Below are positions 14,470-28,868 of a DNA stretch of 64,000 nucleotides, one piece after another (positions within the stretch are counted from its first letter, which is position 1; every line of letters begins with the position of its first letter). Under the pieces are notes generated by a model. It was not told the DNA's origin, ran no database searches, and saw nothing but the letters and a program-made list of their open reading frames with translations. The DNA is from Heptranchias perlo (lineage: Eukaryota). The position numbers and the translations under genes are program-made. Location: assembly GCF_035084215.1 (NCBI RefSeq), contig NW_027139666.1, forward strand, positions 1,116,001 through 1,180,000, given 5' to 3'.

Positions 14470-14600
14470 GATTTCTGCGCATGCGTGACGCAGCCCCGCC
14501 CCCAGCGCTGGTTGTTGGTGAGCGGAAGAGCGCATGCGTGCTCCCTCCCCCAGCTCGGCCTGTGGGCGCCATTCACTCAGTGAGCGGAAAAAGATGGTTT
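14470..14600 (+). promoter_or_regulatory. CpG-rich non-histone promoter: two NRF1-type GCGCATGCG, GC box CCCCGCCCC, ETS-type GCGGAA; copies at ~43260-43385 (+) and ~63780-63900 (-)
   Basis: Clustered motifs in a CpG-rich patch within CpG-poor surroundings. Confidence 0.65.
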
Positions 14601-14613
14601 AAAACAGCCGGGA

Positions 14614-15508
14614 ATGGAGAGATCACGGCCCCCGGGGGAAGGGAGCAAAGAGCAGCCTCGTTACAGCAGCTCATCGCTTCGGGACCGTGTCCGCAGATGG
14701 GCTCAGAGATCGGCATTGAGTCCGGGGGAAGGTCAGGGGGAGTCCGGGGGCTGTTTGTAAGAGGCGGAGTGGATCAGGAACTGGTCCCGGAACATGGAGT
14801 GAGAGGGGGAAGGGAGAGGTCATTCTCGGGCTGTGTGTGTACAGGGTGTGTCCAGGGGAAGGGAGAGAGAATGGGAAGAACCTGCTATTTAAAACCATTG
14901 CTGCTTTCTCTCCCCAAACCAGTAGTGAATGTTCCTGGTTTAGTTCCAGTCTCACCCTGTTTATTGTTATTGGACAGTGAAGAGTGGAAACAGAGCCGGA
15001 CAGTAAGGATGTGGGGAGTGAGACAAAGAGCATCTATGGCAGGGATCAGGTGAGAAGTGTGAAGGGCACATTTTAAACAGCGGCTGTTTGATTTCGGTTG
15101 AACGGTTAGTCCCATGGGAGAGGGGATTAGAAACCTGACGTGTGCAAAGGTCCCCGCCCCATCGGGTCGTCCCATTCATGGATCAGTGCAGGGGTTGGGT
15201 TGTGTCTGGATGTCACTAAATCGTTGTAAAATTGCCCAACACACCTGGTGTGCAGAAGCTGAGTGCTGCAGTACTGCAGTGGAGTCAGACACTGACACTG
15301 TTTGTATCATTCTCATTTGTGGATATTCAAAATAATCATTGATATGGATATTAATTCGAACACTTTTGTATTTTCTGCCTCACTGGTTCTTGAGTTACAA
15401 GAGATAATTTTCTTCCTGCAGGCAAATCCTTGATGGATCCAGAATCAGTGTTATGTTTCCTCCACTTGAGGCACAAGGAACAGTGCAGCCAACTCCTTCT
15501 CCCACACA
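14614..15508 (+). other. Candidate exons 1-3 of an unknown spliced gene (14614-14731, 14950-15049, 15422-15508)
   Basis: GGAATGG start, donors GTCAGG/GTGAGA/GTAAGT, acceptors TTCCAG/CCTGCAG. The spliced frame is open: MERSRPPGEG...SPGE/VSPCLLLLDSEEWKQ...AGI/RQILDGSRISVMFPPLEAQGTVQPTPSPT. Manual prediction only. Confidence 0.45.
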
Positions 15509-15869
15509 GTAAGTACATTATCACACACAGCGCACAGAGCCAAGGAGAGGTCATCAGTTCCACAGTCTCAGACAGTAGAAGTCGTCATTCCCACACTGAT
15601 CCCAAGATCCAGAGACACATTTTCAATCCAACAGTCAAACAGAGCAGGTGAGGCAGACACTGTTCCATTTCCCCCGAGCTGAGTCCCGCTGACAGGTAGA
15701 TACAAAAATCCCAGTCCAAGATCACACTATCAGATGGAAAGGCACTGTATCAATCTCACAACAGGGCAACATTAGCTACGAATTAAATACCAGATCGAAA
15801 TCACACATGGTACCCGATTTAAAGGTGCAGAATGAATCCCAATAATGTACCCTGAGATTCCAATTGATT

Positions 15870-18865
15870 ACTCGCCCAGAACTCTCACACACATGTGAGT
15901 TTATACACTATGCGAATGGATATTGCATGTATCATGTGATACAAATTGCATACGAGTACAAAACTCATGTACAGTATCAGATTAAAAATGCTGTGAGAGT
16001 GTAATCTGAGAAACAAATTAGATATCAGTTTATAATGGACTCATATTGTGAGATGTAAAGATACAGTATCAATTCTATTAGTACAGACTGAGCTATACAT
16101 TATACGCCATTTGAAAAGTGTCACCATATCAATTTGAAAGATACATTATCTTTCACAATAGTACTCACAGAGATACAGATTTAATAGTAGTTCAAAAAGC
16201 ACACAAATTATCTGATTAAAACCTACAGTGTCAAATCCTAAAGTGTATCCACATTTACCAATTAAATAATGAGAAATATGATCGAAACATGAAGATATTA
16301 AAGCTAACATTTTTTATGCCATAATGCAATCTGAGAGAATAATTACATACAGATACAGAATGAATCTCACACTCAGATATAGTACCAGAGACTGACAGAT
16401 GCAGAAGGAATCCCAAACTCACATACAATAATAGAGACTGACAGACACAGAGCAAATCCTACACTCACATATGGTACCAGAGATGACAGATATCGAATGA
16501 ATCCCACACTGGCATACAGTACCAAGGGCTGATAGATATCTAGTTAATTACTCACTCTCATAAAGTACTAGAGACTGACAGAAAGATAATGACTCCCACA
16601 TTCACACAGTACCAGAGCCTGAGAGATACAGAATGAATCACATACTCACACACAGTACCAGAGACTGACAGATAGAGAATGCATCCCACACCAACATGCA
16701 GTCTGAGAGGCTGCATATACAGAAAGAATTCAACACCCGCATACAAGACTGGAGACTGAAAGACACAGAATAAATCCCACACTCACAGTATCAGAGACTG
16801 CATATATAGATTAAATCGCAAACTCACACACACTACTGACAAGATACAGAATGAATCCCACACTGACAAACTGTTCCAGATACTGAGAGATACAAAATGA
16901 ATCACACATTAGTGCAGGCTGAGTAACATTATTTACCATTCCAAGAAGTATCAGATTGAAAGATACAGTATCAATTCCATTAGTGCAGACTGATCTACAC
17001 ATTATATACCACTACAAAAACTGATGCAGATTCAGACTGAAATATACAGTATTCCATTCATGCAGACTGAGCTACACATCATATACAAGTTCAAAAATGT
17101 CACCATATCAGTTTGGAAGATAAACTAATTCACAATTGTGTTCCCATCGATACAGATTTAATAGTAGTCCAAAAAGTGCCCACATTCTCTGACTATATTC
17201 TAAAGCATTTCATTATCAACCAATTAAACACTGGGAAAAATATGCATTCATTGAGGTATTAAAGATAAAGTTTTGAACACCATACTGTAAACGGAGATAC
17301 AAATTACATACAGATAAGGAATGAATCTCACACTCAGATAGAGGGCCAGAGAGTGACACACAGAATGAAACCAGCACTCACACAATGTAACAGTGACTGA
17401 CAGATACCGAATGAATCCGACACTCACACACAGTACAAGGGACTTACAGATATAGAATGAATCACACACACCCACAGTACCAGAGCCTGACAGATACAGA
17501 ATGAATCCCACACGCACAGACAGTACTAGGGACTGACAGATACAGAATGAATCCCACACTCACAGACAGTACGAGGGACTGACAGATATAGAATGAATCC
17601 CACACTCACAGACAGTGCTAGGGACTGACAGATACAGAATGAATCTCACAGTCACACACATTAATGCAGTCTGAGTTACACATTACACATCAGTCCAAAA
17701 ATCTCATAGTGTCAGATTGAAAGATACAGTATCAATTCTATTAGTGCAGACTGATCTACATATTATAAAGCACTACAAAAAACTGATAAAGATTCAGACT
17801 GAAATATACAGTATACCTTTCAAGCAGACTGAGCTACACATCATATACAAGTTCAAAAATGTCACCATATCATTTTGGAAGATAAACTAATTCACAATTT
17901 TTTTCCCATCGATACAGATTTAATAGAAGTCCAAAAAGTGCCCACATTCTCTGATTATAACCGAAAACATTATATTTTAAAATGTATCATTATCTACCAA
18001 TTAAACACTGGGAAAAATTATTGATACATTGAGGTATTAATGAGAGAGTTTTGAACACCATACTGTAAACAGAGACACAAATTACATACAGATAAAGAAT
18101 GAATCTCACACTCAGATAGAGGGCCAGAGACTGACATGCAAATTGAAAACAGCACTCAAACAATGTAACAGTGACTGACAGATACAGAATGAATCCTACA
18201 CTCACACACATTACAAGGGACTGACAGATACAGAATGAATCCTGCACTCACACACATTACAAGGGACTGACAGATACAGAATGAATCCCACACTCACACA
18301 CATTACAAGGGACTGACAGACTTAGAATGAATCACACACTCCCACGGTACCAGAGACTGACAGATACAGAATGAATCCTAAACTCACACACTGTAGCACA
18401 GACTGACAGAGACAAAATTTATATCACTCACAAACAGTACCAGAAATTGATAGATGCAGAATGAAAGTCTCCCTCACATATAGCACCTGACACTGACGAA
18501 AACAGAATGAAACGCACATTCACACAAAATACCAGGGACTAACAGATATTGAATGAATCCCATACTCACACACAGTACCAGATACTGACAGATACAGAGT
18601 TAATTCCACACTTATACACAGTACCTGAGACTGGCAGATACAGAATTAATCCCACTCTCATATACAGTCCCACAGACTTGCAGATACAGAATGATCCCAA
18701 ACTCATATGTAGTGCCCGAGACTGAGAGATACAGAATTAACACCATGCTCACACTCAGTACCAGATACTGGCAGATACAGAATGAATCCCACACTCACAC
18801 AGTATCAGATATTGACAGATGCAGAGTAAACCCCGCTCTCACACACAGTACTGGAGACTGACTTC
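15870..18865 (+). repeat. Composite 82-bp/linker/46-bp satellite block
   Basis: Alternating arrays of the two monomers. Confidence 0.9.
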
Positions 18866-27207: not shown

Positions 27208-27264
27208 TTAAAATAAAATTGCTGGACTATAACTTGGTGTTGTAAAATTGTTCACAATAGTGTA

Positions 27265-28565
27265 CCCCGAGATTCAAATTAAATACCAGCCCACAACTCA
27301 CACCACATTATGAGTTTAAAGATGCAGTATTCATGCCAATATTATACACTGAGATACAAATTAGATACCAGTTCAGATGTTACCCATATTTGACTCACAA
27401 ATATGTCCAAAAACCTCATAGTGTCAGAATGAAATGTACAGTTTCAATCCTATTGTTGCAGATTGAGCTACACATTATATACCAGTCCAAAATTTGCATA
27501 AAGTATCATACAGGAAGATACAGTATCAATCCCATTAGACTGAGGTACACATTAGTTACCTGTCCAAAAATCATATTTATCAAACTGAAAGGCAGAGTAT
27601 CAATTCCCTTACTGCAAACGAAGGTTCACATTAGATCCCTGTCCAGAAATCACGTACAGTACCATACTGAAAGATATAGCATTGATTTAATTAGTGCAGA
27701 CTGACCTACACGTTAATTACCAGTACAAAAATCTCACACAGTTTCAGACTGGAAGATACAGTATCAATCCCATTAGTGCAGACTGAGGTGTACATTAGAT
27801 ACCAGTCCAAAAGTCACATTCAGTGTCAAAATGAAAGATACAGTATCAATTCCTTTAGTGCAGACTGAACTACACCTTACAAACCTGTCTAAATATATTA
27901 CACAGTATCAGACTGAAAGGTACAGTATGAATTCCATTAGTACAGACTGAACCACACATTACATACCAGTCCAAAAATCTCAGACAGTGTCAGACTGAAA
28001 GATACAATAATTATTCTATTAGCACAGACTGAGCTACAAAATAAATACCAGTCCAATAATTTCACAGTAAAAGATTGAAATACACATTATCTTCACGGAG
28101 ATTAAGATGTAATCATTCAACAAAACTCGCACACATTGTTTGATTGAAACAAAATCCAAAAGTGTATCAATATTTACAAATTAATGCAGCACGAAAGATT
28201 TGCATACATTAATGAATTAAACATACAGTTTCAAGTACCATACTCTAACCTGAAATAAGAATACAGAACGAATCCAGACTTGCACTTTGCCCAGAGACTG
28301 AGTTACAGAATGAATCCCACACTGAAATAGAATACCAGAGACTGACAGTCACAGAATGAATCCCACACTCACAGATAGCACCAGAGATTGAGAGATACAA
28401 AAAGAATCACACACTCACACACAGTACCAGAGACTGACAGATACAGAATGAATCCCACACTCACAGACTGTATTGGAGACTGACGGATACAGAATGAATA
28501 TCACACTCACATACAGTACCAGAGAATGACAGACATAGAATTAATGCCACACTCACATGCAGTCT
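27265..28565 (+). repeat. Composite 82-bp/linker/46-bp satellite block
   Basis: CAGTATCAAT at 27841 recurs as CAGTATGAAT at 27923 (period 82). Confidence 0.9.
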
Positions 28566-28635
28566 GACATCTACTGGCCATAAGTGAGAACTGTAACTGA
28601 GTGGAACAAATTCACATTATCTGTCGTTGTTCCAG

Positions 28636-28868
28636 ATTCAGGACAATGTGCAATGTGAGGAAATAGTTTCTCTCTGTAACTTCTACTCCCGTACTTTTTC
28701 TAATTTTGTCAGTTAAAAATTAGACAATTGATTTCGAATAAAGTTTTTGTTTTCCTCATTCGAAAGTTGCCCCATTATATTTCACTCTACATTGCGCAAT
28801 ATTTCTGTCTGAATTCTCAGGAGACGATTTATATTAATTCAAATAAACCGAACTGAAACACGAATAAA
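28636..28868 (+). other. Candidate exon 4 (28636-28654, 19 nt) and terminal exon 5 (28821-28856, ETIYINSNKPN-stop, AATAAA 28863-28868) of the unknown spliced gene
   Basis: TTCCAG|...|GTGAGG micro-exon in six copies; pyrimidine-rich TTCTCAG acceptor; stop codon followed by a polyA signal. Confidence 0.4.

Follow-up and report, generated by a model that had tools for sequence, protein, structure and literature searches.

A spliced promoter-and-exon cassette, likely a non-coding passenger, in the histone gene repeat of the shark Heptranchias perlo

Introduction

Histone gene quintets with interspersed ribosomal RNA (rRNA) genes have been described, with the 5S gene in Artemia and Mytilus, the rRNA cistron in the boll weevil, and both in Potamopyrgus (PMC13525598). 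Histone genes also share joint clusters with transfer RNA (tRNA) genes, on red stingray chromosome 28, on chromosome 6 in human and on chromosome 4 in zebrafish (10.1101/2025.06.08.657570), and the primate core duplicon LCR16a/NPIP, in which an open frame is kept and positive selection is seen, can form fusion transcripts with flanking genes (PMC7419210). What is said of these three sources, here and below, refers to the parts of each that were accessible. Here we analyse a stretch of 64,000 nucleotides from Heptranchias perlo (contig NW_027139666.1, positions 1,116,001 to 1,180,000 of the forward strand; hereafter the window), and in it a repeated non-histone unit of up to five exons that lies between the histone genes H1 and H2B (hereafter the cassette).

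We think it probable that this unit is a promoter-and-exon cassette in the H1-H2B spacer, that its exons 1 to 3 are spliced, with an optional short exon 2, into what is likely a non-coding RNA, that it is likely a passenger of the histone repeat, and that it would donate its promoter in a zinc-finger gene fusion. A literature search whose scope excluded subscription journals and bioRxiv supplements found no publication on this cassette.

Results

The original prediction, made from the letters of the window, had placed a five-exon non-histone gene inside the histone repeat unit. A script check found AG and GT at all of the ends of its five segments, and the joined frame is 119 codons long, to a stop at 28854-28856, whichever of the three exon 4 copies of this unit is used. 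The promoter motifs are likewise in place, at 14477, 14494 and 14530, in a stretch with a GC content of 0.62 and a CpG observed/expected ratio of 0.77; the palindromes at 14477 and 14530 we take to be of NRF1 type. Read data were used as contigs over 14100-16300 from four runs (X1, X5, X6 and X8), which are RNA by our guess, none being recorded as such; X6 and X8 come from a second organism ("organism B"), not that of X1. The parts of the unit, all on the plus strand, are as follows.

14470..14613, CpG-rich promoter and 5′ leader, with presumed NRF1-type palindromes at 14477 and 14530 and a GC box at 14494
14614..14731, exon 1, from the predicted ATG to the donor of the main family
Exon ends 14726 and 14798, alternative exon 1 donors, the first being older, 5 nt upstream, and found in copies on genome contigs C2 and C3 and in organism B
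14950..15049, exon 2, long form; read contigs use the inner acceptors 14978 or 14985 or skip the exon
15422..15508, exon 3, its acceptor used in X1, X6 and X8 contigs
16006..18862, satellites of the predicted intron 3, in which 82-bp and 46-bp blocks alternate; break site in rearranged copies
18930..18948, candidate exon 4 of 19 nt, first of three, in a region paralogous to the spacer upstream of H2B
19122..19560, exon 5-type acceptor that continues into an antisense piece of CR1 and a duplicated H2B-upstream spacer; start of the first internal duplication
19620..20149, internal duplicate lacking its own promoter, with some of exon 2 and an exon 3 copy of 86 nt
24558..24576, second exon 4 copy
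25267..25791, second internal duplicate, holding a piece of exon 2 and a copy of exon 3, then antisense CR1 at ~25800-26710
28636..28654, third exon 4 copy
28821..28868, candidate terminal exon 5, with AATAAA at 28842 and 28863 and another in intron 4 at 28737

The splicing of exons 1 to 3 is seen in the joints of the read contigs, of which 15 of 20 are listed; contig depth is unfit for ranking the parts, and only the joints are relied on. The deepest joint, 14731>15422, has GT..AG borders and lies in one X1 contig at a depth of 2641. Other X1 joints are 14731>14978, again with GT..AG borders, and one linking 14798 with the start of an exon 3. From the exon end at 14726, contigs of X6 and X8 have joints to 14978, to 14985 and to exon 3, and X6 also joins exon 2 to exon 3. 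Depth over the exons is raised in the contigs of X1, X6 and X8 and flat in those of X5, which show no joint over 14100-16300. The joined exon 1 to exon 3 form has no match in the genome DNA at one mismatch, so the joints represent splicing if X1 is from this or a near species. They fall in all three phases, and the deepest shifts the frame. The predicted junction 14731>14950 is absent among the 15 of 20 joints listed, and the observed 14731>15422 and 14731>14978 both leave the proposed frame.

The exon 1 donor has itself moved. The older donor (exon end 14726) is present in 26 copies on genome contigs C2, C3 and C1275, while in the main family it has been lost and a GT 5 nt downstream has arisen; both donors are used in the read contigs. 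One X1 contig has exon 1 spliced to the exon 3 variant of the zinc-finger lineage described below.

A search of the 3.25-Gb genome gave 677 matches for the end of exon 1 (~680 copies), 263 for exon 5 and 414 for an H2B pattern, totals that may count both haplotypes. The cassette of the full unit begins ~2.2 kb from the start of H1, head to head with it, and ends ~2.3 kb before H2B; it is followed by H2B, H2A, H3, H4 and H1, and thus occupies the H1-H2B spacer of the quintet. Repetition in this fixed order with the quintet is seen in the window and in four other loci (L081, L082, L089 and L095). The predicted co-amplification of a spliced unit with the histone genes is therefore borne out by copy counts, joints and flanks, and of the two forms that had been offered for it, a spliced long non-coding RNA (lncRNA) family fits, whereas a presently coding family of 119-residue orphan proteins is unsupported.

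Downstream of exon 5 in the window copy the order is a tRNA-Gly relic (29329-29389), a CR1 piece, H2B and H2A, as had been predicted. The region of exon 4 consists of duplicated DNA from the H2B-upstream spacer, and the decayed tRNA-Gly lies in the stretch 3′ of exon 5; the 3′ part of the cassette thus looks as if it had been assembled from the repeat's own spacer. A variant unit (window 40351-41531 and L083-L087) has an intact tRNA-Gly followed by H2A, and is paralogous to the stretch after exon 5. A subfamily in four loci (L040, L058, L059 and L060) has an inverted promoter ~6 kb downstream, past the satellites, facing exons 1 to 3.

Between exon 3 and exon 5 the window copy holds two internal duplications (exon 4, the exon 5-type acceptor at 19122, CR1, a piece of exon 2, and exon 3), so that the 119-codon join must skip two further exon 3 copies and a nearer exon 5-type acceptor. 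No unit in the window has the simple five-exon order, which is present elsewhere in the genome (L007, L062 and L068). Exon 4 copies stand at all six predicted places in the window, and the exon 3 acceptor AG and donor GT are retained in six of its six copies.

For comparison across the genome, loci were chosen by similarity to the window copy or by exact patterns, and form a biased sample. An aligned set of 58 promoter-type copies was used (63 matches, minus four with insertions before exon 3 and one duplicate). The ATG is retained in 57 of the 58, as are the acceptor of the long exon 2 and the exon 3 GT; the exon 3 AG is retained in all 58, and both NRF1-type palindromes are kept in 43. The candidate splice sites of exon 4 are kept in 43 (AG) and 42 (GT) of 44 copies, and the AATAAA of intron 4 (28737) in 34 of 44, which ranks it 23rd of 135 six-mers and is not decisive.

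The copies are neutral in every frame examined. In tree-based tests on the 58 copies, the ratio of replacement to silent rates (dN/dS) was 0.79 (p 0.29), 1.02 and 1.13 in the frames of the original prediction, and exon 2 has 8 stops against 8.2 expected. With the old-donor copies added, inner branches carry 18 silent changes (20.9 expected), 61 replacement changes (60.4 expected) and 6 stops (3.7 expected); dN/dS is 1.17 on these branches and 0.83 (p 0.10) at the tips. Mean differences among 19 loci chosen by an exon 3 pattern are 0.076 for exon 1, 0.045 for intron 1, 0.102 for the short exon 2, 0.09-0.11 for intron 2, 0.066 for exon 3 and 0.101 for intron 3, and the exons are thus not clearly better conserved than the introns. 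Exon 1 shows no conserved RNA structure (fold z 0.36), and Rfam gave no match at threshold, with no small nucleolar RNA (snoRNA) or microRNA (miRNA) above threshold in the introns.

Several observations weigh against the view that the cassette is a spliced non-coding passenger. No listed read contig has the window copy's alleles at 14575 and 14590, so expression is shown for the family and not for the window copy. The runs are only presumed to be RNA, and were seen as contigs. The retention of splice sites exceeds background by a modest margin only (among GT and AG within introns, 20 of 59 and 24 of 66 are kept at a level of at least 96%), which leaves selection on the RNA not established. The other points concern an older reading frame. 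When the older donor is combined with an exon 1 of main length, the consensus frame runs open from the ATG, itself so widely retained, to the exon 5 stop, at 84 codons without exon 2 and at 108 with the short exon 2; shuffles match these open joins in 275 and 67 of 3000 cases, and 67 keep both forms open. The long-exon-2 join of the original prediction restores this frame, 12 of 12 isolated exon 2 paralogs and the protein P0001 are open in it, and so is one further copy (L155), but without an ATG. A hand count over an exon 3 piece of organism B gave 4 silent and 3 replacement changes (p ~0.09), and in X6 and X8 the old donor is in use, and most exon 1 depth is without a 1-nt loss that is found in the C3 family.

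These points would fit a fossil of a small orphan protein gene of 84 or 108 residues, with the short exon 2 as an in-frame cassette exon. Its frame would have been lost in this genome through the donor shift of the main family and, for the C3 family, through the 1-nt loss; other cartilaginous fishes, or unsampled copies, may still have it as a coding gene. The copies themselves speak differently: a purifying signal is missing from the inner branches too (1.17), the 26 old-donor copies include none with both the ATG and an open frame (21 have a 112-nt exon 1), the out-of-frame acceptor 14985 is deeper than the in-frame 14978 in X6 and X8, the start codon of the older frame was picked from three, and among 1.84 billion representatives one unnamed metagenome open reading frame (ORF) is alone as a full-length relative of exon 2. 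We regard the fossil gene as unlikely, if with a fair number of observations on its side. Less likely again is the wider proposal that the remains of an orphan gene of 84 or 108 residues still code in some species, and that its promoter cassette is a duplication core given to a new family of ~70 zinc-finger genes, whose expression is thereby tied to the histone locus, and carried into tRNA arrays.

Isolated and diverged copies of exon 2, bounded by splice sites and with retroelement-like flanks, lie at L088:7950-8066 (minus strand) and near 6000-6200 in L101-L116. There are at least 40 such places in the genome, and in most fetched loci the paralog stands ~1.9 kb after the frame of a seven-transmembrane receptor. 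The acceptor of the long exon 2 is the edge of this paralog. At L088:6500-7500 (minus strand) there also lies a CpG-rich stretch that resembles a promoter, has a short open first exon and a minisatellite intron, and recurs together with the receptor and zinc-finger blocks.

That the cassette is a presently translated family of 119-residue orphan proteins with a terminal tyrosine motif, as originally proposed, we hold to be very unlikely. The join is open in the window copy, its frame stays open through exon 3 in 27 of the 58 promoter-type copies, and the long acceptor is kept in nearly all of them. Shuffled sequences had a join free of stops in 7 of 5000 cases (bases shuffled) and in 39 of 3000 (family consensus, dinucleotides shuffled), so that the open join is more than chance would give; of the 48 joins that documented sites of the window copy allow, however, 5 also reach at least 100 codons. 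Against this stand a required joint that is absent among those listed and a deepest joint that shifts the frame, a dN/dS of about 1 with exon 2 stops at expectation, and an exon 5 placed behind two internal duplications in the window copy. The predicted frame-preserving changes are in part as described: exon 3 at 62893-62976 is 84 nt long, matching a 3-nt deletion, and exon 2 at 43733 is 91 nt, but that copy has also lost 2 nt in exon 1 and 1 nt in exon 3, and with them the frame. Other copies had been said to be frameshifted or to lack a splice site, and 31 of the 58 are indeed broken in the predicted join. The terminal YxN motif varies between copies, and sits in a candidate exon.

No relatives of the proposed peptide were found in the protein searches. 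Pfam gave no match for five window peptides or two paralog peptides, an Atlas search gave no usable match, and word-index protein searches gave nothing at the thresholds used, which is weak evidence given the short queries. A full profile scan with exon 2 gave three matches, namely the metagenome ORF mentioned above, which lies over exon 2, and two repeat proteins that are likely chance. In DNA of other species, no relative was found among 153 pattern matches of a metagenome scan, and three of three pattern loci were chance. A weak resemblance of exon 2 to AP-3 beta (PDB, E 0.5) was rejected. Set against the two AP-3-beta-like exons of the genome itself, its score was equalled by 20 to 133 of 200 shuffles, and the borders of the exons are not the same.

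The cassette occurs in three genomic settings. Its histone linkage had been recognized in the original prediction, and its presence before zinc-finger exons and in tRNA arrays had been missed. Genome contigs C1456 and C1562 have 72 junctions at which the satellite passes into a repeat in the first intron of a C2H2 zinc-finger gene. The promoter and exons 1 to 3 lie upstream on the same strand in 20 of 20 sampled junctions, and the finger frame is open, for 224-420 codons from its own start, in 14 of the 20, two others extending past the fetched stretch. The fused copies form one clade (support 100/98 and 100/99), with the histone quintet still upstream in two of two copies checked. Among ordinary zinc-finger loci, none of 11 has the cassette within ~9 kb upstream, and several have a promoter of their own just before the first-intron repeat. 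One clade, ordinary loci without the cassette and native promoters together suggest that the cassette replaced the native zinc-finger promoter once, and that the fusion was later amplified ~70-fold. The idea that the exons are instead the ordinary 5′ leader of a shark C2H2 zinc-finger family, the histone-linked copies having lost the finger exon, could call on the 20 sampled copies upstream of a zinc-finger intron or exon; it is largely refuted by the ordinary loci without the cassette, in 13 stretches of which profile searches gave a best E of 0.85, and fits poorly with their own promoters and with fused copies that form a single clade behind a quintet, so that we give it next to no credence.

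Eight of the 11 ordinary zinc-finger loci (L043, L044 and L046-L051) have an in-frame stop at the same place, before the linker to the first full finger, and five of these have an open degenerate finger in frame before the stop.

The third setting is a subfamily of 195 copies, found near tRNA genes in 13 of 18 sampled. In nine of nine aligned copies it is missing 98 bp of the promoter core that hold both palindromes, and a subfamily of this size whose aligned copies lack the promoter core means that copy number is no guide to function.

A non-autonomous transposon or satellite-linked mobile element, for which the hundreds of copies on many contigs and the satellites inside could be cited, is hardly credible, given that the introns are kept, kilobases of histone-unit flank are shared, no processed form was found in the genome, and the copies cluster, among the first 100 matches listed, on histone and tRNA contigs instead of being dispersed.

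The window further contains histone genes with stem-loops, tRNA-Gly, CR1, Penelope-like and other retroelement pieces, and satellites with repeat lengths of 46, 50 and 82 bp. Its features around the cassette, and its other promoter-bearing copies, are as follows.

11672..12340, minus strand, H1 of the upstream quintet, divergent from the cassette
29329..29389, minus strand, decayed tRNA-Gly, with an intact paralog at 40486-40557
30649..30809, plus strand, conserved spacer upstream of H2B, 95-98% among window copies and paralogous to the exon 4 region
31166..31411, plus strand, H2B with an internal deletion of ~125 nt
32415..32804, plus strand, H2A with stem-loop
43255..44266, plus strand, second promoter-bearing copy (exon 1 116 nt, exon 2 91 nt, exon 3 86 nt), frame broken
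62893..63905, minus strand, third promoter-bearing copy, exon 1 donor GT lost and only satellite after it

A Penelope-like GIY-YIG element lies between H2A and H3 (6806-8668 and 37723-38682), with inverted parts 97-100% identical. A palindromic insertion resembling a miniature inverted-repeat transposable element (27021-27257 and ~30925-31080) is the source of below-threshold Rfam hairpin matches. Besides the H2B with the internal deletion, two further histone copies are decaying, an H4 at 10464-10775 with two residues replaced relative to the copy at 35028, and an H4 interrupted by a retroelement (56177-57722).

Discussion

The cassette behaves like a duplication core and is likely a non-coding passenger of the histone repeat. 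We suggest that RNA polymerase II would transcribe it from the CpG promoter, that transcripts would end at exons 4 and 5 or at the AATAAA of intron 4, and that most isoforms would decay owing to early stops. Tandem and segmental duplication would have spread the copies, the breaks falling in the satellites of intron 3, and in the fused lineage exon 3 would be spliced to the zinc-finger exon, leaving exons 1 to 3 as a 5′ leader. The cassette would thus hitchhike on the amplification of the histone repeat, and could lend its promoter to a new neighbour. To the prediction from which we began, the present work adds the fusion with a zinc-finger gene, the tRNA-array lineage that lacks the promoter, the shift of the donor and a possible older frame.

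If the cassette is a neutral hitchhiker, it accounts for a class of shark repeats, and it is a caution against annotating the joined frame of 119 codons as a protein. Through the cassette one can test whether a neighbour has its timing set by the histone locus. The fusion with a zinc-finger gene would be a clean example of promoter capture giving rise to a gene family that was later amplified ~70-fold, and bears on the origin of the large zinc-finger repertoires of sharks.

Multi-exon lncRNA hosts of the SNHG/GAS5 type have short exons, many splice forms, early stops and a CpG promoter, as the cassette does. They differ from it in that no snoRNA or miRNA stands above threshold in the cassette introns, and in its hundreds of copies. 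The rRNA passengers of invertebrates are likewise non-histone transcription units repeated within the histone quintet unit (PMC13525598); the cassette is not an rRNA gene, but contains introns, bears a promoter and has no Rfam match. The passengers known from that source are rRNA genes, and neither sharks nor lncRNA occur in its main text, nor sharks in two supplement files, as far as these were accessible; a spliced, promoter-bearing passenger in hundreds of copies is new against that background. The joint histone and tRNA clusters of vertebrates are the same type of neighbourhood, and here the cassette connects histone units with tRNA arrays. Their description is one of co-location, with no shared promoter-exon cassette, and "zinc finger", "satellite" and "lncRNA" do not appear in the accessible main text (10.1101/2025.06.08.657570). 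At the level of the family, the cassette is also like the primate core duplicons of the LCR16a/NPIP kind, as a transcribed segment over-represented in varied duplication blocks (PMC7419210). Its fusion with a zinc-finger gene is seen in the DNA, and the exon 3 variant of the fused lineage is spliced. Unlike NPIP, the cassette has no selected open frame and stands mostly in tandem with histone genes, and we do not claim that it drives duplication (PMC7419210).

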